This document shows, in pieces, positions 24,581-36,618 of a DNA stretch of 53,260 bases. The DNA is from a virus (taxonomy: Duplodnaviria; Caudoviricetes). The translations under genes and the position numbers were made by a program. The stretch spans positions 1-53,260 of IMG/VR virus record IMGVR_UViG_3300031983_000023; one strand, written 5' to 3'. Position 1 is the stretch's first letter. Each line of letters begins with the position of its first letter. The notes beneath the pieces are model-generated. The model made no database searches, was not told where the DNA came from, and saw nothing but the letters and a program-made list of their open reading frames with translations.

Positions 24581-25177
24581 CTATTCGTTCTGAATGTCCC
24601 GCATGTTCGCCAGGCTTATTTCCGTCGCTCCGCGCGCCCGGCGCAGCCGCCCCAGTCCCTTTGATTCCAGCTGCCTGATTCTGTTGCCGGTTACGTTGTA
24701 TATCTGCCCTATCTCGTCCAGCGTCTTTTGCTCCCCCTCCAGGCCGAACCGCAGCTTGATTATTTCCGCCTCTCGCGGAGGAAGCGTGTCGAGCACGGCC
24801 ATCAACTCCTCGCCGACCTGTCCCCGGCTCGCGGCGATTTCCGTCCCCCACAGCCGCAGCCTTTCCCTGGGAGCTTCTATCTGCGAAAAAGGGATTTCCA
24901 GCACGGCCCTCGTTTCCTTGAACCCGTACAACTCATCGGGAAAAAGGTCCTCCTTGAGCATCTTGAAATGGTCGCCCAGTCTGACCGCCTGCAGGCAGTA
25001 TGCCTCGTCCTTTTTCCTGGCCTTCCGTTTCAGGTTCAGCAGCTTTCCTATGGCAACCTGATTCCCCACCCCCGGGTTGGCCTCCACGAATTGGCTGACC
25101 GAACTGTAGCGGTCGAAAATGCAGTGCCACAAAACGTTGTTCCTTAGCCTCGCCTCCAGCCTGATCGGCTTAATCAT
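24581..25177 (-). CDS. Sigma-70 region 4 domain protein with N-terminal HTH (putative late regulator)
   Basis: LDTLPPREAEIIKLRFGL...TLDEIGQIYNVTGNRIRQLESKGLGRLR. Confidence 0.85.
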   Translation of the reverse strand: MIKPIRLEARLRNNVLWHCIFDRYSSVSQFVEANPGVGNQVAIGKLLNLKRKARKKDEAYCLQAVRLGDHFKMLKEDLFPDELYGFKETRAVLEIPFSQIEAPRERLRLWGTEIAASRGQVGEELMAVLDTLPPREAEIIKLRFGLEGEQKTLDEIGQIYNVTGNRIRQLESKGLGRLRRARGATEISLANMRDIQNE

Positions 25178-27276: not shown

Positions 27277-28007
27277 ACCTCCGCTCCCACCGGCTGGGCT
27301 TCTCTCCGGCCGTGGCCCGCTCCCGTGGTCTGGGCTTCTCACTCGCCGGTGGCCCGCTCACCCACACTGGGTTTCTCCACTACCCTGGCCCGCTCTGCTC
27401 AAGTGGACTTCTCCGTCGCGGTGGCACGCTCTCTCGACCTGGGTTTCTCGGGGAAGATGGCCCGCTCCGGTGGTGTGGGTTTCTCCCAGGACATGGCCCG
27501 CTCGGTCCGGGTGGATTTCTCTGGAGAGGTGGCCCGCTCCATCCGCATGGGCTTCTCGCCTACAGTGGCCCGCTTCCCGTCCGTGGGTTTCTCGCTCTTT
27601 TTGGCTCGCTCTATCACAATGGATTTCTCATGGTGCCTGGCCCGCTCATCGAGCCTGGATTTCTCCCGGGCGATGGCCCGCTCTTGCAAGCTGGGTTTCT
27701 CCTCTGCCTTGGCCCGCTCTCCAGCCGTGGGCTTCTTGGACTTCCTGGCCCGCTCGCTCCTGGTGGGCTTCTCCCTGTTCTTGGCCCGCTCTGAGCATTT
27801 GGGTTTCTCGTTGGTCATGGCCCGCTCGACCGGCCTGGGTTTCTCGCGGTTCGTGGCTCGCTCCCCCCGTTTGGGTTTCTTAAGTTCGATGGCCCGCTCC
27901 AGTCGTCTGGGTTTCTCCACGATCGTGGCCCGCTCCCCCTCAATGATTTTCTCTTGGAAAGTGGCTCGCTCCCCGCCTGTGGGTTTCTTGCCGGAGGTGG
28001 CTCTTCC
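27277..28007 (-). ncRNA. TIGR-type dual-repeat guide-RNA array (20 units of 36 nt)
   Basis: Minus-strand units GAGCGGGCCA-N8-GAGAAACCCA-N8 with a strict 36-nt period (one 37-nt unit) and 40 different spacers, directly downstream of a Nop-domain gene. Confidence 0.9.
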
Positions 28008-28824
28008 TCCACTCGCTATGTTTGTGCCCCAGATACTCCTCGTCGTAGAGGGGCCGTATGGGCAAGCCCTCCAGTGCCCGCCATATGACGTACAGGTCCT
28101 TGATGAACATTTTCACCATGTAGCGCCTGGCCGCGTTGTGCTGGTGTCCCGCCTTTGGCCGCTTCGGATCAGTCGGGTTCTTGCTCTCCTCGCCCCAATC
28201 CTCCGACTCAAGACGGTGCTTCACGTTGTCATAGTAAACTCTATACGGGCTGCCATGCACGAGAAACTGCTTGCCGAGCACGCCCAGCAGCTTGGATTTC
28301 AGGAAGGCGTTGTATGGGCGCACAAAGCCCTTCGTTTTTTTGTCGCCGCGGATCAGGGTATCGGTCGCGACCAGTACCCTTTTCCCCTTTATCTTTTTCC
28401 AGACCTTCCCGCGCACAAGGCCTGGATTCATACCGGCGAACTGCCAGCCTTTGGAGACGTTCTCGAACTTGTGTATGTCGAACTCTGTAACGATCACGGC
28501 AGCCAGCATCTCGCCGACTCCCTTCACGTCCCTAAGATAGCTAATCCAGAGCGGGTGCTTGTGGATTAGAGGGACGATCGCCTTTATCATGGCGAGCTCA
28601 AATTTCAGTTTATCGTCCCTCCGCTCCATGAGTACCATGAGCAAAGCGGCGTCGCGGTCCGGCCTCCCCTTTTTGGCCTCTCCATTTTTCGTCAAGCCAA
28701 GTCGGCCGTCCAAGGCTATACGCTCGTCTTGAGCGTCATAATAAGCCCGCGTGAAGATGCGGATCGACTCCATCATCTCCGGGGTAAACCTTTCATCCGG
28801 GTCCGGACAACATACCGTTTTCAT
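27940..28824 (-). CDS. tasA: Nop-domain / IS110-C-terminal-like protein (TasA-type, no nuclease domain)
   Basis: Coiled coil, then HPLWISYLRDVKGVGEMLAAVIVTEFDIHKFENVSKGWQFAGM, YNAFLKSKL, PYRVYYD, HQHNAARRYMVKMF..DLY. No RuvC (DEDD) or HNH N-terminus. Confidence 0.85.
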   Translation of the reverse strand: MKTVCCPDPDERFTPEMMESIRIFTRAYYDAQDERIALDGRLGLTKNGEAKKGRPDRDAALLMVLMERRDDKLKFELAMIKAIVPLIHKHPLWISYLRDVKGVGEMLAAVIVTEFDIHKFENVSKGWQFAGMNPGLVRGKVWKKIKGKRVLVATDTLIRGDKKTKGFVRPYNAFLKSKLLGVLGKQFLVHGSPYRVYYDNVKHRLESEDWGEESKNPTDPKRPKAGHQHNAARRYMVKMFIKDLYVIWRALEGLPIRPLYDEEYLGHKHSEWRKSHLRQETHRRGASHFPRENH

Positions 28825-29531
28825 GCCGATACCCCCACTTTCTTGAGAATGTCGGCAATCAGAGCGTAGACCTCCTGGAGGAGCTTGATCGTTTGGTCAT
28901 CGTACTCGATGGCTCCCTGGGCCTTCGCCGCGTTGATGAATCCTCTGAGAAGCATCGTCGGCGCATTCCACCCCCCTGCTGTTCTTGCAAAATGTTCCTG
29001 GTCGCTGTCGGCTTTTTTGCCATCAAGATGCTTGGCAAGCGGAGCAACAGCGGCAGATACCGCTATCCTCGTCCCGTTCTGGGTGACGATGGATCTCCCC
29101 TCCACCAGTTTCCGGACACGCTCCACGTCCATGTCCAGGGCCTTGGCGATTATAGGCCAGGGCACGCGGTCCCTCCGCATGCCGAGGGCAAAATGCACCT
29201 TGTCCTTCGGGGTGAGCTGCAGCGCCCCCGAGTTTGCGGAATGCGCCGCGTCAATCCGCATCGCGACCTCGTTCGCATACTCCCGAAGGATAACCACGGT
29301 TTCGGCCTTGTCGCCCTGCACTCTGAGCAGCGCTTTCGCCCTGTGGAAACCGTCAATGATCCGCAGACTTTTCGAGTCCACTACAATCGGGGTGTTGAAA
29401 CTACGCCCCGACAGCAGGATTTCCTCCAGCTTGTGAACGTTGGTTGAATCTAGCTTTCCGGCTTCGTGCCTCGGCCAGATTCTCCAGTCCTGGACCAGTT
29501 CCAGAACTTTGACCTTTTTTTTTGTGTCCAT
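28821..29531 (-). CDS. ParB/Srx-like domain protein coupled to TasA
   Basis: Start MDTKKK with GGAGGTG RBS; PIVVD...IIDGFHRAKA ParB-N motif; stop overlaps the tasA start (ATGA). Confidence 0.85.
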   Translation of the reverse strand: MDTKKKVKVLELVQDWRIWPRHEAGKLDSTNVHKLEEILLSGRSFNTPIVVDSKSLRIIDGFHRAKALLRVQGDKAETVVILREYANEVAMRIDAAHSANSGALQLTPKDKVHFALGMRRDRVPWPIIAKALDMDVERVRKLVEGRSIVTQNGTRIAVSAAVAPLAKHLDGKKADSDQEHFARTAGGWNAPTMLLRGFINAAKAQGAIEYDDQTIKLLQEVYALIADILKKVGVSA

Positions 29532-29617: not shown

Positions 29618-29646
29618 AATATATCTCTGTTCTATTACGTAGGCAA
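29618..29646 (-). promoter_or_regulatory. Promoter of the ParB-TasA-array cassette
   Basis: TTGCCT-N17-TATATT in an AT-rich gap; two hairpins in the leader. Confidence 0.6.
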
Positions 29647-29648
29647 CG

Positions 29649-30215
29649 CTATGGTTTTTGCAGCACCCCCAATCGCCTGGCTGCACGGAACAGCTCCCAG
29701 ATGCTTTCCGGTTCCTGGATCCCCGTCCGGAAGTGCATCCTTCCGCAGGCCCGGCAAAAGACCAGCAGGCAGTAGAAGCATCTGTAGGCTCTTCGCAGCG
29801 GGATCCTCCGCTTGCACTCCGCGCAGTCCACCTCCCCCGGACACTCGAGCAGTTCCCTCTCCTGGTCCGCTATCGTCCTGAGCAGGCTGTCCCTCTCAGC
29901 CGGGGTCTTTGGTATGCGGTGGATATTCACGCGTACCCCAGGTAGCCGTCGTAGAGGCAAAAGATTTCCCTGGACGAGCTGGGAGTCTCCCCCTGCCTCC
30001 ACAGCGGGGGGGGCGACGGTCTTTGTCTTTCGCCTGATGTAGCCCAGCTCCTCGAGGGTCTTGAGGCAGTTGGCCACGGTCGCCCTTGAAACGCTGGTCT
30101 TTTCGGCGATGTAGAAGCTCGTCGCCCTGGTTTTCATGGGCTTCAGATCCCTCACGGCCGAGTACAGAAAATTATACACTTTCCGGTCGTTCAGGCTCAG
30201 CTCTTCTTTTCCCAT
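29649..30215 (-). CDS. Winged-HTH protein with C-terminal Cys-rich Zn finger
   Basis: IAEKTSVSRATVANCLKTLEELGYI; CAEC..CFYC..CRAC. Confidence 0.65.
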   Translation of the reverse strand: MGKEELSLNDRKVYNFLYSAVRDLKPMKTRATSFYIAEKTSVSRATVANCLKTLEELGYIRRKTKTVAPPAVEAGGDSQLVQGNLLPLRRLPGVRVNIHRIPKTPAERDSLLRTIADQERELLECPGEVDCAECKRRIPLRRAYRCFYCLLVFCRACGRMHFRTGIQEPESIWELFRAARRLGVLQKP

Positions 30216-32258: not shown

Positions 32259-32498
32259 TCAGCGGCCGTCCGTCAGCCTGCCGTAGTCGTCCATGATTTT
32301 TTGCTTGGCAAGCGCCTCGCCCACGGCGTCAACAATCATCTGCTTTAGGCTGGACGCCTCGACATCGATCCGCCCCCCGGTTTCTTTGTCGAACACCCGC
32401 ACGTGATCCACCGCCGGATTGGACAGGGCCTTCTCTAATACACCCAGGTCAAAATCCTGCACCTCGCCCCTTTCCCCGCTTTTATACACTTCCTGCAT
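32259..32498 (-). CDS. Hypothetical protein
   Basis: 79 aa, coupled to the upstream gene. Confidence 0.5.
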   Translation of the reverse strand: MQEVYKSGERGEVQDFDLGVLEKALSNPAVDHVRVFDKETGGRIDVEASSLKQMIVDAVGEALAKQKIMDDYGRLTDGR

Positions 32499-33096
32499 TC
32501 GCTTCTCCTTCCTCTCTTCTTGTCTCTTTCAGCAGCCACGCCACGGCGTCGCTGTTGGTCCTCAAGCCCTCGCGCATCCTCACCGCCTCGATGCGCTCCT
32601 TTGCCGTCCTGGACACGGCCAGGGACACGCTGTCCCCGCCCTCCCCGGATCTCGAGGCCAGGGCCTCCCAGTCGAACCCCACCATTTCCCTGAAATGCGC
32701 CAGCTCGGCATCGGTATACGGCATGGTCTCCGCCAGGTCCCCCAGGTCGAACTCCTGCAGCATGGCCTCCACCGTCTCCGACAGGGACAGGTAGTCGGTC
32801 GGGAAGTTCGTCTCGTTCGTCTCCACGGCCAGGCGCTTTGCGGCCGCGTTGGAAATCGGCCCGGTGTCGAAGCACAGGGCCTCTTTCACCCCCAGGGCCT
32901 CCAGGGCATCCAGGCGGTGGTTGCCGTTGATCACTTCCCAGCGGCAGCACCCGCTCGACGGGCGGACGATCAGGTTGATCAGCTGGCCGTTTCTCCTCAT
33001 GTTGGCCTCCAGGGCAGCCTGCATTTCCGGATCGTCCCTCTTGTAGTTCCACGGGGCTTTGTCCAGCACGTGCACCTCCAAGGTCCTCCAGCCCAT
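32482..33096 (-). CDS. ParB/Srx-like protein (paralogue B)
   Basis: WNYK...NGQLINLIVR...EVINGNHRL. Confidence 0.8.
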   Translation of the reverse strand: MGWRTLEVHVLDKAPWNYKRDDPEMQAALEANMRRNGQLINLIVRPSSGCCRWEVINGNHRLDALEALGVKEALCFDTGPISNAAAKRLAVETNETNFPTDYLSLSETVEAMLQEFDLGDLAETMPYTDAELAHFREMVGFDWEALASRSGEGGDSVSLAVSRTAKERIEAVRMREGLRTNSDAVAWLLKETRREEGEANAGSV

Positions 33097-33127
33097 CACT
33101 CGCCCCCACGGCCGTGCCAAAATGCGG

Positions 33128-33952
33128 TCACCATCCAGCCTCTTGTAATTGCCGAGCCGCAATTATATATGGCCCGCCCCAATCTCTTCTAAGTTGTCGC
33201 CATTCCGGAGACGTTGTACCGGTTCTGTTTCTCCAGAGCATCGCCATGGGCATGAATCCAAGATTCAGTGTTTTCTGAAGTCGGATTGCTGCACCCTCCA
33301 GTGTGTCTTTTGGATATCCGATCAAAACAAAACAGCGAAGAGCATGCGAGGCAACCGTAAACCCAGCTTCAAACAGCATTTCTCCCGCCCGAACCAAAGG
33401 TTTATAATCATCGGGCGCGTCGTAGGCGAAAAATATTTGCTTTGGTTTTAATCCGCGCAAGAGCTCAGCGTGCCAATCTTTCAACCTGGCAGCTTCCAGG
33501 CCCCCAGTAAATTGAGCCTGCTCTGGCTGTCTTCTGAGCATTTGAAACACAGCTTTAACGTGCTCGTCCGAACATGCCAGCAGATTGTCATCGAGCACAT
33601 TCCAACCATCCCGGATCGGCAGCTCCCGCACATTTCCCTCCCGCCGCCAGACAGAACAAAACCAGCAGCGATTTGGGCATCCTCGAGAAGTGATTACATA
33701 TCCCTGCTTTAAATACATTCCTGGCTCAAAATCACCGCTGGCCATGCCGGTTGCAGGTCCTCCGATTTTCACTGGCGCTATTTTCTTCCAAGCCTGGGCT
33801 AGTCTCTCCGCCAGCGGGAGATCCCAGGTAAAAGCTACCGAAATATGCACTTCGTCGATATCATCAGGCACAAACAAATCCGGCTCGCCTATAAAAGAAT
33901 ATGCATCGATGGGCGTCGCCCTGGTTCGGCGTGGGAATACTCGAATTATCAC
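33128..33952 (-). CDS. Radical SAM protein
   Basis: TSRGCPNRCWFC (CxxxCxxC) and LDDNLLA motifs; visibly lower GC than flanks. Confidence 0.85.
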   Translation of the reverse strand: MIIRVFPRRTRATPIDAYSFIGEPDLFVPDDIDEVHISVAFTWDLPLAERLAQAWKKIAPVKIGGPATGMASGDFEPGMYLKQGYVITSRGCPNRCWFCSVWRREGNVRELPIRDGWNVLDDNLLACSDEHVKAVFQMLRRQPEQAQFTGGLEAARLKDWHAELLRGLKPKQIFFAYDAPDDYKPLVRAGEMLFEAGFTVASHALRCFVLIGYPKDTLEGAAIRLQKTLNLGFMPMAMLWRNRTGTTSPEWRQLRRDWGGPYIIAARQLQEAGW

Positions 33953-34533
33953 CGTTCCCCCGCCAGGAGCTCCAGGGCGCCGGACGCCTTCCGCAGGTTC
34001 CGCTCCAGCGCAAACTCGACCAGCTCCTCGTACACCTCCCTGGTCACGCTGACGGAAGTCGCAAGGCTCTCCCCCCAGGCGTCCCCGAACTGCGTCCAGT
34101 CGAACTCGAGCAGCGAGGCGTAGTCCCCGATCTCCTCCACGGTGAAGGGCATCGTCCCGGACAGGTCCTCCGTCCCGAACTCGCCGGCGGCCTCGGCCAC
34201 CACCTCCGCGAGCCGGACCTGGTCCGGCCGGAACCGGGTCTCGTTGGTTTCCACGGACACCCTCATGGCCTCCTCATCGCTCACCTTCCCGAGGTTCACG
34301 CAAACGGCAATCTCCATTCCGGCGGCTGCCATGGCGGGGAGCCGGTGGTTTCCGTTCACCGCCTCGTAGCGGTCCCCCGGCTTCTCCCTGACTATCAGAT
34401 TTTCGACCTGACCATTTCTCCGGAGATTCCGCTCGAGCTGGCCCTGCAGGAATAGGTCCTCCTTGCGATAGTTCCATGACGCCATGTCGATCGACACCAG
34501 CGGGATCTCCGTCAATCTCACGATATTTCTCAT
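33949..34533 (-). CDS. ParB/Srx-like protein (paralogue A)
   Basis: WNYR...NGQVENLIVR...EAVNGNHRL. Confidence 0.8.
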   Translation of the reverse strand: MRNIVRLTEIPLVSIDMASWNYRKEDLFLQGQLERNLRRNGQVENLIVREKPGDRYEAVNGNHRLPAMAAAGMEIAVCVNLGKVSDEEAMRVSVETNETRFRPDQVRLAEVVAEAAGEFGTEDLSGTMPFTVEEIGDYASLLEFDWTQFGDAWGESLATSVSVTREVYEELVEFALERNLRKASGALELLAGER

Positions 34534-35135
34534 TCTCTCCTCCCGATTATTTCCCTCAGCCTTTCCGCCGCCCCCTCCCCGAAGTCGGTTTTCCCGGCGG
34601 CTATCATCTCCGCCGCCTTGAGCATCAGCCAGGCGTCGGCCACGTCCACGGAGGGGAACATCCTCCCATACTTCGCCCGGACCGCCGCCAGGTAGTCCCT
34701 CGTCCTCGTCTTTCTCACGTGCCGGAAGGCCTTGCCCATGGTCGCCGCCTTCCACGTGTTCTGTGCCAGCTCCACGAACGGGACCCCGCGCCTCCACAGG
34801 AGGTAGCGTATCGCCCCGCCGATCTCCCCCTGGGTCACCAGGTAGTTGCCCTTCGCCCCGTAGGCGTACTGCTCCACCACGGCGAAGCGCTTCTCCGGGT
34901 CGAGCCTGGAGATCTCCCCTCCCACGGCCGCCAGGATTTGCTGCACGGCCCTCCACTTTCCGGTCGAGCTCCCGGAAGCCACGGTCTGGTAGTACTCGAC
35001 CCCACGTATCCGGGTCACGATGCCGGTCGATCTCAGTGACGGGTCTATGGAGATCGCCTCCATAAAAAGCGGGGCGGGATTGTCCGCCCCTGCTTCCGCA
35101 AAGGGCGCCTCCATGACTTCCTCGCCCCACTCCAT
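34530..35135 (-). CDS. RuvC-like Holliday junction resolvase
   Basis: ISIDPSLRSTG, VVEQY, WKAATMG and DVADA catalytic motifs. Confidence 0.8.
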   Translation of the reverse strand: MEWGEEVMEAPFAEAGADNPAPLFMEAISIDPSLRSTGIVTRIRGVEYYQTVASGSSTGKWRAVQQILAAVGGEISRLDPEKRFAVVEQYAYGAKGNYLVTQGEIGGAIRYLLWRRGVPFVELAQNTWKAATMGKAFRHVRKTRTRDYLAAVRAKYGRMFPSVDVADAWLMLKAAEMIAAGKTDFGEGAAERLREIIGRRE

Positions 35136-35136
35136 G

Positions 35137-36618
35137 TTACTCTTCCTTCTCCCTCTTGGGGATCCGCACATCGAACTCCCCGGCCATCTTCTCGAGCACC
35201 TTCCACCGCTCCGTCTCCGCGGCCCTTCTGCCGAAAGACACTTCGCTCTCCTCGACTTCCAGGGCGGCCACGAGCAGGCACCTCACGATGAACGGCTTGA
35301 GCTCCTCCTCCGGAAGCCCCCGGATTTGCCTCAGCCCGGTCTCCGTCCAGCCCTCCCGGTAGTATTCGCCCTCTTTTTTCGGAGGCCTCTCCCATCCGTA
35401 CAGCCCGCATAGGTCCTTGCGGTAATTGTCCCACAGCCTGTCGAAGAACTGCAGCGCCAGGATCCTCTCGACCCCGTGGGTCAGGCCCGCCCTGGCCTTC
35501 TCCGCCGCCGCGTCGATGAGCTCCTTCCGGAAACCCTTCTCCCTGCTCACCAGCTTCCTCGTTTTCTTGGCCTTTTCCTTCTCCTCTTTTGTCGTGGCCG
35601 TCCCGGACCTCGCTCCTCTAATGATGCCCCAGGTCAAGCGCCCCCTGCGGGCGCCCTCCGTCACCAGGCACCGGACGGCGCCTTCGTCCTTTTTTTTGCA
35701 CTCGGTCCACTGGTAGACGTCAAGCACCCCTTCCGGCGTCTTTCCGGTGTGCCAACCCTCCGAGACCATTTTGTACTCCTCACCCTCGAGCTTCCGCTGT
35801 TGGGCCTCCACGAGGGCGTCCAGCTTCCCGTTGTAGCAGGCCGGGTCCGTGCAGAGGTCGTCCTTCCCGACGTCCGGAAAAAGCGCGGGCTGCGCCCCGG
35901 ACCTCTTGAGGCACTCGGCGCAGGTCCCCGCCTCCGGAACCAGCCCCGCGTCGTCCCTCTTGAACGGAGCGTCCCCCAGCCTGGTCAGCACGCTCTGGGC
36001 GATCATGTCCCGTAGTTCCTTCGCCGAGTACTCGCCGCCCCATCTCGTGTGATCCTTCATCTGTTTTAGGCAGGCGATCTGGTCCTCCGGCTGGAGCCCG
36101 CACAGCGCCAGGGCGTGCCCGATGTTCATCCCGCCGGCAGCGAATGTTTCCCTTGCCTCCGGCTCCAGGTCCAGCAGCCTGACCCTTCTCTGCACGTGCG
36201 AGACGGAGCAGCCGATCTCCCTCGCCGTCTCCTCCGCGTCCATGAGCTGCATGAGCTCCATAATTGCCACGGCCTCGTCCAGCGGATGGAGGTCCTCCCT
36301 CTGCACGTTCTCCACGATGCTCGCCGCCCTCGCCTCGTCGTCGCTCATTTGCATCACCGAGCAGGGCAGGTCCTTGAGCCCCACGATCTTGGCGGCCATG
36401 AACCGCCGGGCCCCGACCACTATCTCCCAGTCCTCCCCGTCGGGCCTCACCACGATGGGCTGCAGCACCCTGCCTACCGCCCTTATCGACGCGGCCAGAT
36501 CCTCGAGCTTCTCCGGGCTGGCCCCTATCGTCCTCCTGTTGTTCCTGGCCGGGTGCAAGCGCTTTATCGGCAGCATCCTCACGTCCGGGCCCTCTTTCGT
36601 CAATCCTTTTTCTTTCAT
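35137..36618 (-). CDS. ParB/RepB/Spo0J family protein
   Basis: LQPIVVRP..EIVVGARRFMAA, VENVQREDLHPLDEA, HTH, and a Cys-rich domain. Confidence 0.9.
   Translation of the reverse strand: MKEKGLTKEGPDVRMLPIKRLHPARNNRRTIGASPEKLEDLAASIRAVGRVLQPIVVRPDGEDWEIVVGARRFMAAKIVGLKDLPCSVMQMSDDEARAASIVENVQREDLHPLDEAVAIMELMQLMDAEETAREIGCSVSHVQRRVRLLDLEPEARETFAAGGMNIGHALALCGLQPEDQIACLKQMKDHTRWGGEYSAKELRDMIAQSVLTRLGDAPFKRDDAGLVPEAGTCAECLKRSGAQPALFPDVGKDDLCTDPACYNGKLDALVEAQQRKLEGEEYKMVSEGWHTGKTPEGVLDVYQWTECKKKDEGAVRCLVTEGARRGRLTWGIIRGARSGTATTKEEKEKAKKTRKLVSREKGFRKELIDAAAEKARAGLTHGVERILALQFFDRLWDNYRKDLCGLYGWERPPKKEGEYYREGWTETGLRQIRGLPEEELKPFIVRCLLVAALEVEESEVSFGRRAAETERWKVLEKMAGEFDVRIPKREKEE

Follow-up and report, generated by a model that had tools for sequence, protein, structure and literature searches.

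A conserved tasParB-tasA pair in a phage TIGR operon, and the association of TasParB relatives with VIPR loci

The window analysed in the present work is an entire virus record (IMGVR_UViG_3300031983_000023; 53,260 bp, with direct terminal repeats and classed as complete), and its minus strand carries, in this order, the genes tasParB and tasA, coding for a ParB-like protein and a Tas protein, and a TIGR array. The locus is a phage-borne tasParB-tasA-TIGR operon of an already published kind: such loci were named by Faure et al. 2025, who left their function open (PMC12045711; this paper and the preprints cited below for their content are drawn on for the accessible parts of their text). This agrees with the initial annotation, which had mentioned ParB-associated TasA loci of no established function. 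In the present analysis, tasParB and tasA are found to be translationally coupled and conserved as a pair, which is near-obligate in one large clade of TasA, and the TasParB family is linked to an accessory gene of VIPR loci, a link which is new here. TasParB is most likely an accessory effector of RNA-guided silencing, a reading which is held with moderate confidence.

The pairing was followed in 99 loci of TasA relatives (4 viral, 80 metagenomic, which are the best of 278 confirmed, and 15 from genomes or metagenome-assembled genomes), which together with the window form 82 groups at 97% TasA identity, 67 of them informative besides the window. The initial annotation had made its proposal depend on the co-occurrence of the two genes among homologues, and such co-occurrence is indeed observed: TasParB is encoded directly upstream of tasA, on the same strand, in 46 of the 67 groups. 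Where TasA is at least 48% identical to that of the window, the proportion rises to 37 of 39 groups, as against 9 of 28 below this identity. One exception in the more similar set (locus L016) may be a false miss, since its array runs toward the contig edge, and in locus L002 TasParB is found downstream of tasA instead. The two genes mostly overlap or abut across the loci, while the arrays may lie upstream of, between or downstream of them; in the window, the TGA of tasParB and the ATG of tasA share the ATGA at 28824-28821, the overlap that had originally been pointed out. In a TasA tree limited to 32 rows (of 100 loci, 65 failed a 200-amino-acid core filter and 35 passed it, less 3 duplicates), the ParB-linked proteins, that of the window among them, group in one clade (support 100/99), and a second small ParB-linked clade (100/100) is nested among TasA proteins without ParB. 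The TIGR array of the window abuts a DUF5681 gene and that of the large terminase; a packaging-linked role was rejected because the neighbours of the operon are not conserved, 8 neighbour proteins having given only 4 weak matches over the 99 loci.

The TasParB family extends beyond the Tas systems. Viral contigs scanned with the TasParB alignment yielded 69 loci; a Tas protein is encoded within 3 kb in 19 of them (17 close and 2 divergent, the latter in L133 and L151). In 41 of the 69 loci, the TasParB-like gene has a same-strand neighbour of about 190-210 amino acids (aa), usually directly upstream, which corresponds to phrog_4652 and whose profile matches the PDB entry 36pp, "SUSP1 Vipr protein", over nearly its full length (expectation value, E, 2.6e-25). 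The TasParB-like proteins beside vipr are full-length relatives of TasParB. Same-strand arrays of GGYNN pentanucleotides, read directly in L141, occur around both genes in 28 of the 41 Vipr loci and in 0 of 18 Tas-only loci. By this count of Tas and Vipr neighbours, the family accompanies two unrelated nuclease-free RNA-guided binders, one or the other of which it adjoins in 60 of the 69 viral loci. The possibility that Vipr is a hidden Tas protein was rejected, hhalign of Vipr against the TasA profile giving a probability of 0.06%. The TasParB-like family is large (596 cluster representatives at E up to 1e-30). Neither TasParB nor a Vipr-linked relative found a tblastn match among 50,697 phage records, and therefore no cultured model phage is known from that collection.

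The partner of each protein is reflected in the phylogeny of the family. A quick-search tree of the ParB-like proteins, with long branches, divides into a Tas half (27 Tas-linked proteins and 3 without a partner seen) and a Vipr half (36 Vipr-linked, 6 without a partner seen, and 2 Tas-linked on long branches), with an SH-aLRT support of 93 for the split; the partner labels were equally clustered in 0 of 200 shuffles. Residues L12, D15, P20, R21, G42, R57, D60, G61, H63, R64, N99, G103, D110, A129, G187 and L221 are conserved to at least 85% in both halves. Residues 181-236 diverge, the two halves sharing a consensus at 20-38% of positions, which makes the C-terminus a candidate for partner contact or dimerisation. 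Two loci of unusual composition were also seen: in L133 (870-4087), a divergent Tas-like protein (matching TasH at 1.9e-11) is encoded about 630 nucleotides (nt) upstream of a set of vipr, ParB-like gene and GGYNN array, and in L151 (2980-4850) a ParB-like gene of the Vipr half lies 180 nt upstream of a gene for a divergent Tas-like protein of 328 aa (matching TasR at 6.8e-13).

In VIPR, a RAMP-like Vipr and GGY/NN guide RNAs silence competing elements, and a gene for a vipr-accessory protein (vap) is found at each locus (10.64898/2026.04.26.720920). Like TasA systems, these are phage-encoded, nuclease-free RNA-guided DNA binders directed at competitors, and the gene adjacent to vipr is a full-length TasParB relative in the 41 loci above. 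They differ in their effector, which is not a Nop protein, in their guide grammar, and in that the experimentally studied Vap1 is a different protein of 146 aa. The word ParB is absent from the main text of the VIPR preprints 10.64898/2026.04.26.720920, 10.64898/2026.04.26.720927 and 10.64898/2026.10.15.759431, whose supplements may label a Vap as ParB-like. Vipr homologues were also noticed in two cultured phages, Pseudomonas phage LESphi2 (L171, 2492-3564) and Escherichia phage HY02 (L172, 2510-3540), where they are annotated merely as hypothetical proteins; that of LESphi2 lies beside the genes for CI and Cro, and by eye the 163-aa protein next to it does not resemble ParB.

The 294-aa product of tasA is TasA, a Nop-domain Tas protein without a nuclease domain. 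A word-indexed search found 184 relatives, typically of 235-265 aa, and a profile of 24 of them matches the solved structures of TasH (E 1e-24) and TasR (9mty, 1.6e-21) in the PDB, the alignment being restricted to TasH residues 105-297, which are its Nop part. The AlphaFold2 (AF2) model (pLDDT 87.9) has TasH 9w04 (E 2.7e-10, query TM-score 0.64) and TasR 9mty as its best Foldseek matches; all of its top ten PDB matches are TasH or TasR chains, and IS621 comes next. The absence of RuvC and HNH domains, as claimed from the first inspection, is upheld by a first helix that begins at residue 15 of the model, by the Nop-only alignment, and by Pfam, which gives no HNH or RuvC family and a sub-threshold Transposase_20 match alone (E 0.0019). 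Residues Y260 and H269 are invariant among the 24 sequences. The former aligns with the Tyr of the processing dyad proposed for SpTasH in dual-repeat systems (Y289 and H296; 10.64898/2026.09.09.750476), while the column of the TasH His is occupied by H267 in the window and by Lys in the family consensus, the invariant H269 standing two residues beyond it. Neither TasA nor TasParB is matched by any family of the PADLOC models.

Published work indicates what such a protein may do. Nuclease-less TasA binds 36-nt tigRNAs (PMC12045711), and another TasA exerts guide-dependent, reversible repression of transcription (10.64898/2026.09.09.750476). Both papers draw the comparison with nuclease-free CRISPR effectors: type IV CRISPR, Cas12m and Cas12k likewise bind under RNA guidance without cleavage and reside on mobile elements, but their fold and their mode of recognition are unrelated to those of TasA, which addresses both strands through dual spacers. 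No ParB-like partner of these effectors is described in the accessible parts of the same two papers.

Each unit of the TIGR array consists of an edge repeat, GAGCGGGCCA, an 8-nt spacer A, a loop repeat, GAGAAACCCA, and an 8-nt spacer B, the two repeats being assigned as edge and loop because the layout fits the TIGR arrays described in PMC12045711. Tandem Repeats Finder (TRF) returns periods of 36 and 72; one unit is of 37 nt, the 5' end of the first edge repeat has degenerated, and the array closes with a truncated stub, GAGCGG. With its 10-nt repeats and 8-nt spacers, it conforms to the TIGR definition. No clear intrinsic terminator was seen behind the array. The first units of the array overlap the 3' end of tasA, beginning about 65 nt ahead of the stop codon (window 27940-28007). 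Since TasA homologues stop near ...EEYLGKKHSA, some 22 C-terminal residues of this TasA are array-encoded and unconserved. In several TasA homologues, the called open reading frame (ORF) runs through an upstream array, which places ERA..EKP peptide repeats at the N-terminus. Just 3' of the array in two loci (L006, 2826-3275; L008, 2740-3189), a weak radical SAM homologue was noted (26% identity, E 1.3e-5).

In these respects the locus resembles the published tasParB-tasA loci, which are conserved operons with diverse flanks, arrays of 10-nt repeats and a modelled 2:2 complex (PMC12045711). In both, a solo-Nop tasA shares an operon with a parB-like gene, the arrays are of the dual-repeat type with 10-nt repeats, and the setting is viral with diverse flanks. 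Compared by description, nothing essential sets them apart; in the window the array starts inside tasA, and a whole 53-kb phage genome is available. Among the papers listed by a literature search, the term tasParB occurs in PMC12045711 only; ParB is absent from the main text of two 2026 TIGR-Tas preprints, and a 2025 preprint surveying the ParB fold contains no occurrence of "Tas" or "RNA-guided".

The properties of the array bear on the proposal that TasParB serves the array itself, by processing guides, expanding the array or turning over spacers. TIGR arrays have no known adaptation machinery, as far as the accessible parts of PMC12045711 and 10.64898/2026.09.09.750476 go, and the spacers are highly diverse: of the 18 units parsed in the window, 0 recur among 620 units from 75 other loci, spacers being common only to near-identical contigs. 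The variable position of the arrays relative to both genes also speaks for it. However, GAGCGGGCCA and GAGAAACCCA are kept within 2 substitutions over 75 loci (e.g. L003, L077-L084 and L093), and this conservation spans TasA clades with and without TasParB. TasA moreover has an invariant Tyr and His that may correspond to the dyad to which self-processing is ascribed in dual-repeat systems, and VIPR arrays are wholly different in structure, yet have the accessory family in common. A role at the array is thus very improbable.

TasParB is read from the ATG at 29531, which lies behind a GGAGG and from which the homologues align; an alternative reading from a TTG would give 265 aa. The protein starts at the core of its fold, with no leader peptide. 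Residues 56-67 of the 236-aa form are LRIIDGFHRAKA, and the motifs of the N-domain (DWRIWPR, IIDGFHR and SANSG..LTPKD) are followed by a region resembling a helix-turn-helix (HTH) at about residues 108-145 and then by a C-terminal helical region. In the family alignment, D15, D28, G61, H63, R64 and G73 are invariant, and the motifs read DWNLWPR, R-I-V-D-G-F-H-R and N-x3-G-L-x-L-S-P-K-D, succeeded by the HTH-like stretch. PHROG 1033, "ParB-like partition protein", matches TasParB at 3.1e-6.

It is by fold, and not by Pfam, that TasParB is identified as a ParB. The AF2 model (pLDDT 94.3, pTM 0.86) matches the N-domain of pNOB8 ParB (5k5d, 9.1e-8), B. subtilis ParB-CDP (6sdk, 6.5e-7), KorB (8qa9), C. 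crescentus ParB and Noc, all at a Foldseek probability of 1.00 over 146-247 columns; the best structural matches are the entries 5k5d, 6sdk, 8qa9, 7bm8 and 7nfu. The KorB-KorA co-complex 8qa9 has the top query TM-score among the matches listed (0.48), and structures of sulfiredoxin and serine kinase rank far lower. The ParB-N assignment that had been made from the IIDGFHR motif is consequently sustained by the predicted fold, the model presenting a ParB/Srx N-domain followed by an HTH-like helical region.

On the reading favoured here, the array would be transcribed with or behind both genes and cut into 36-nt tigRNAs, and a TasA dimer would use the two 8-nt spacers of a tigRNA to bind both strands of a matching site, with no cutting. 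TasParB would be the dedicated accessory or effector of TasA: its pocket (P20 and R21; D60, G61, H63 and R64; N99) and its HTH may act on the DNA found by TasA, and its divergent C-terminal part may provide dimerisation or partner contact. The net effect would be a stronger or longer silencing of foreign DNA, whether of a competing phage, satellite or plasmid, or of host genes. Its contribution could be that of a spreading clamp gated by nucleoside triphosphates (NTPs), of a bridging or condensing protein, or of an enzyme. The association of TasParB relatives with Vipr fits a role downstream of RNA-guided DNA binding. In the one VIPR system studied genetically, the accessory is required: deleting vap1, whose product is not homologous to TasParB, impairs plaquing on a satellite lysogen by the same factor of 10^4 as deleting vipr (10.64898/2026.10.15.759431), which shows no more than that an accessory may be essential in systems of this type. 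Since the family is kept beside two binders that distort DNA very differently, TasParB would be a downstream accessory and not a sensor of DNA geometry.

A physical contact between the two proteins, for which co-folding had been put forward as a check, was modelled with TasA residues 10-272 and TasParB, each with a separate alignment. The median score was 0.40 (runs of 0.53, 0.00 and 0.40) against 0.00 for the best control; agreement between the runs covers at least 0% of contacts, and the partner has a pLDDT of at least 79. When the tool was calibrated, 58 of 80 solved complexes attained the mark, as did 2 of 110 mismatched pairs, and scores up to 0.60 account for 7 of the 80 complexes and for both mismatches, so that a pass in this range is oftener wrong than right unless the guess is likely beforehand. 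The conserved operon makes the contact likely beforehand, and the support that the co-fold lends to it is weak.

The initial annotation had gone further, proposing an RNA-programmed clamp loader. In that scheme TasParB is a clamp gated by CTP or another NTP, TasA with its tigRNA takes the place of parS, and sliding or spreading silences or tethers the flanking kilobases. The Box II motif GERRxRA, with its arginine pair, and the Box III motif ENxxR serve CTP binding and hydrolysis in canonical ParBs, while motifs of the DGxHR type are typical of non-CTPase members of the ParB/Srx group; KorB is a sliding clamp that is captured by a DNA-bound partner and thereby represses over long range. TasParB shares with the CTPase clamps (ParB/Spo0J, Noc and KorB) the fold of the N-domain and a helical DNA-binding region, and its matches to CTP- or CDP-bound structures extend over the N-domain and the helices that follow, the KorB-KorA complex being again the highest by query TM-score among those listed. 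Box II keeps its GxxR and Box III its Asn, both of them invariant or almost so. The N-terminus at the fold core is compatible with a clamp, as is the lack of an encoded ParA: as had been stated at the outset for ParA and integrase, PF00589, PF00239, PF13614 and PF01656 (integrase, resolvase and ParA) have 0 matches across the complete 53,260-bp record. A published AlphaFold3 model, in addition, has TasParB dimerising through its C-terminus (PMC12045711).

The motifs of TasParB nevertheless depart from those of the CTPase ParBs. Its Box II is GFHR instead of GERR, His replacing the first Arg, and of ENxxR the Asn alone is kept, so that TasParB has neither the arginine pair of Box II nor a full Box III ENxxR. 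In an alignment to the canonical ParB of the window, which is indicative only (hhalign probability <1%; 15.6% for another ParB-like protein of the window), IIDGFHRAKA pairs with IVVGARRFMA and SANSGALQLTPKD with VENVQREDLHPLD, SANSGA thus standing opposite VENVQR with the Glu and Arg replaced. Pfam ParB_N does not reach TasParB; its DGxHR is of the type described above as typical of non-CTPase members, and Srx and serine kinase structures do figure lower among the Foldseek matches. ParABS partition differs further, there being no cognate ParA in the phage and no known parS. The ParB N-domain with its HTH-like region, the coupled pair and the missing ParA support the earlier scheme, and the motifs do not; a CTP clamp is possible on the motif evidence, the clamp-loading proposal is plausible from the modelled fold, and the scheme as a whole is doubtful. 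Its tethering or segregation variant is made less likely by the separate canonical ParB that this phage carries. A more general form would make TasParB an interchangeable nucleotide-gated clamp module, recruited by TasA and by Vipr through a branch-specific C-terminus, with an RNA-specified site of 16-18 nt replacing parS and seeding spreading or bridging, and hence regional silencing of a rival genome; it carries a similarly small chance of being correct.

TasParB might alternatively act in trans as a ParB/Srx-type nuclease or NTPase, forming with TasA a split RNA-guided nuclease. The D-G-x-H-R motif and the invariant acidic and basic pocket, kept in the Tas and Vipr branches alike, speak for this; the reference list of PMC12045711 includes a paper on Osa, a ParB/Srx protein with multiple enzymatic activities, and some VIPR types have predicted nuclease accessories (10.64898/2026.04.26.720920). 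The best structural matches, however, are DNA-binding ParBs with an HTH and no nucleases, and the PADLOC models are silent. According to the same preprint, predicted nucleases or helicases are confined to VIPR types III-V, while types II, VI and VII carry predicted DNA-binding proteins. An enzymatic role is therefore considered unlikely.

It is also conceivable that TasParB has no role at TasA targets, being either a repressor that controls its own operon by way of its HTH or a protein for maintenance of the phage genome that happens to lie on the same transcript as tasA. An HTH-like region is present, short palindromes lie between a promoter-like site and the tasParB start codon, and a number of TasA groups dispense with an upstream TasParB. 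Yet an RNA-guided binder adjoins the family in the great majority of viral loci (60 of 69), which renders a chance neighbourhood hard to sustain; the flanks are otherwise unconserved, and a canonical ParB is already present in the phage. This alternative appears improbable.

Several observations weigh against TasParB as the accessory effector of TasA. Upstream TasParB is missing from 21 of the 67 informative TasA groups, so that TasA can work without it, and a published TasA represses alone, without TasParB (10.64898/2026.09.09.750476). Pfam ParB_N is touched by 2 of 38 members of the TasParB family (best E 0.029), and a family-profile search of PDB sequences yields no ParB. The co-fold is weak, with one of three runs at 0.00 and no interface output. 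The VIPR link concerns relatives of TasParB and not the locus of the window, which has neither a Vipr (E up to 1) nor a run of at least 5 GGYNN units. The SUSP1-type Vap1 (146 aa), for which a requirement has been shown, was compared and is not ParB-like.

The guides of the window likewise fail to point to a target. No perfect dual-spacer match exists in the phage genome outside the array, and near matches are at chance, with 18 at 2 mismatches for cognate units against 14.6 for non-cognate pairings; at 1 mismatch, cognate units have 2 matches in the phage's own genome against 0.42. An apparent excess at 2 mismatches (26 against 11.4 ± 3.4 from 20 letter shuffles) was discarded, as it vanished against the non-cognate-pairing null. 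When the 548 distinct units from all the arrays collected were scanned against 948,751 bases, the expected geometry yielded 3 matches and the control geometry 2, where chance would give 0.73 for each; all are AT-rich, and none lies within the window.

The features of the window are collected in Table 1. The promoter scan gave 1 site against 0.9 from shuffles and has no statistical weight. Two more ParB-like paralogues, one with the motif INGNHR and the other with VNGNHR, lie on either side of a radical SAM gene at 32482-35130 on the minus strand. Upstream of the operon, on the same strand, 29649-30200 encodes a protein that combines an IclR/MarR-type HTH with a RING-like zinc finger. Past the terminase genes behind the array, the product of 24581-25177, again on the minus strand, contains sigma-70 region 4 (1.5e-17).

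Table 1. Positions of the operon and related features in the window
Feature	Position	Strand	Basis and remarks
Promoter-like site, TTGCCT-17-TATATT	29618..29646	-	In the 117-nt gap upstream of tasParB; weak evidence
tasParB, 236 aa, ParB/Srx fold	28821..29531	-	ORF, family alignment, AF2, Foldseek, PHROG 1033
tasA, 294 aa, nuclease-less Nop-domain TIGR-associated protein	27940..28824	-	ORF, profile, AF2, Foldseek
TIGR array, 20 units, 36-nt period	about 27287..28007	-	TRF, register parse
Canonical ParB-type protein, 493 aa, long C-terminal extension	35137-36618	-	ParB_N 1.6e-19 and HTH_ParB 6.2e-14

Nuclease-free TasA is the commonest form of Tas, and tasParB is the sole recurrent partner gene reported for it. 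To this the present work adds a measured co-occurrence, an analysis of the motifs, and the link of TasParB to the VIPR accessory gene, by which the question is narrowed to the contribution that a ParB-like protein makes to RNA-guided DNA binding. Two independent systems, Tas and VIPR, now offer grounds on which the role of the TasParB family can be tested. Should TasParB spread from sites chosen by RNA, the pair would constitute a natural, programmable analogue of parS-ParB silencing, and a compact tool of about 530 aa of protein and a 36-nt guide.

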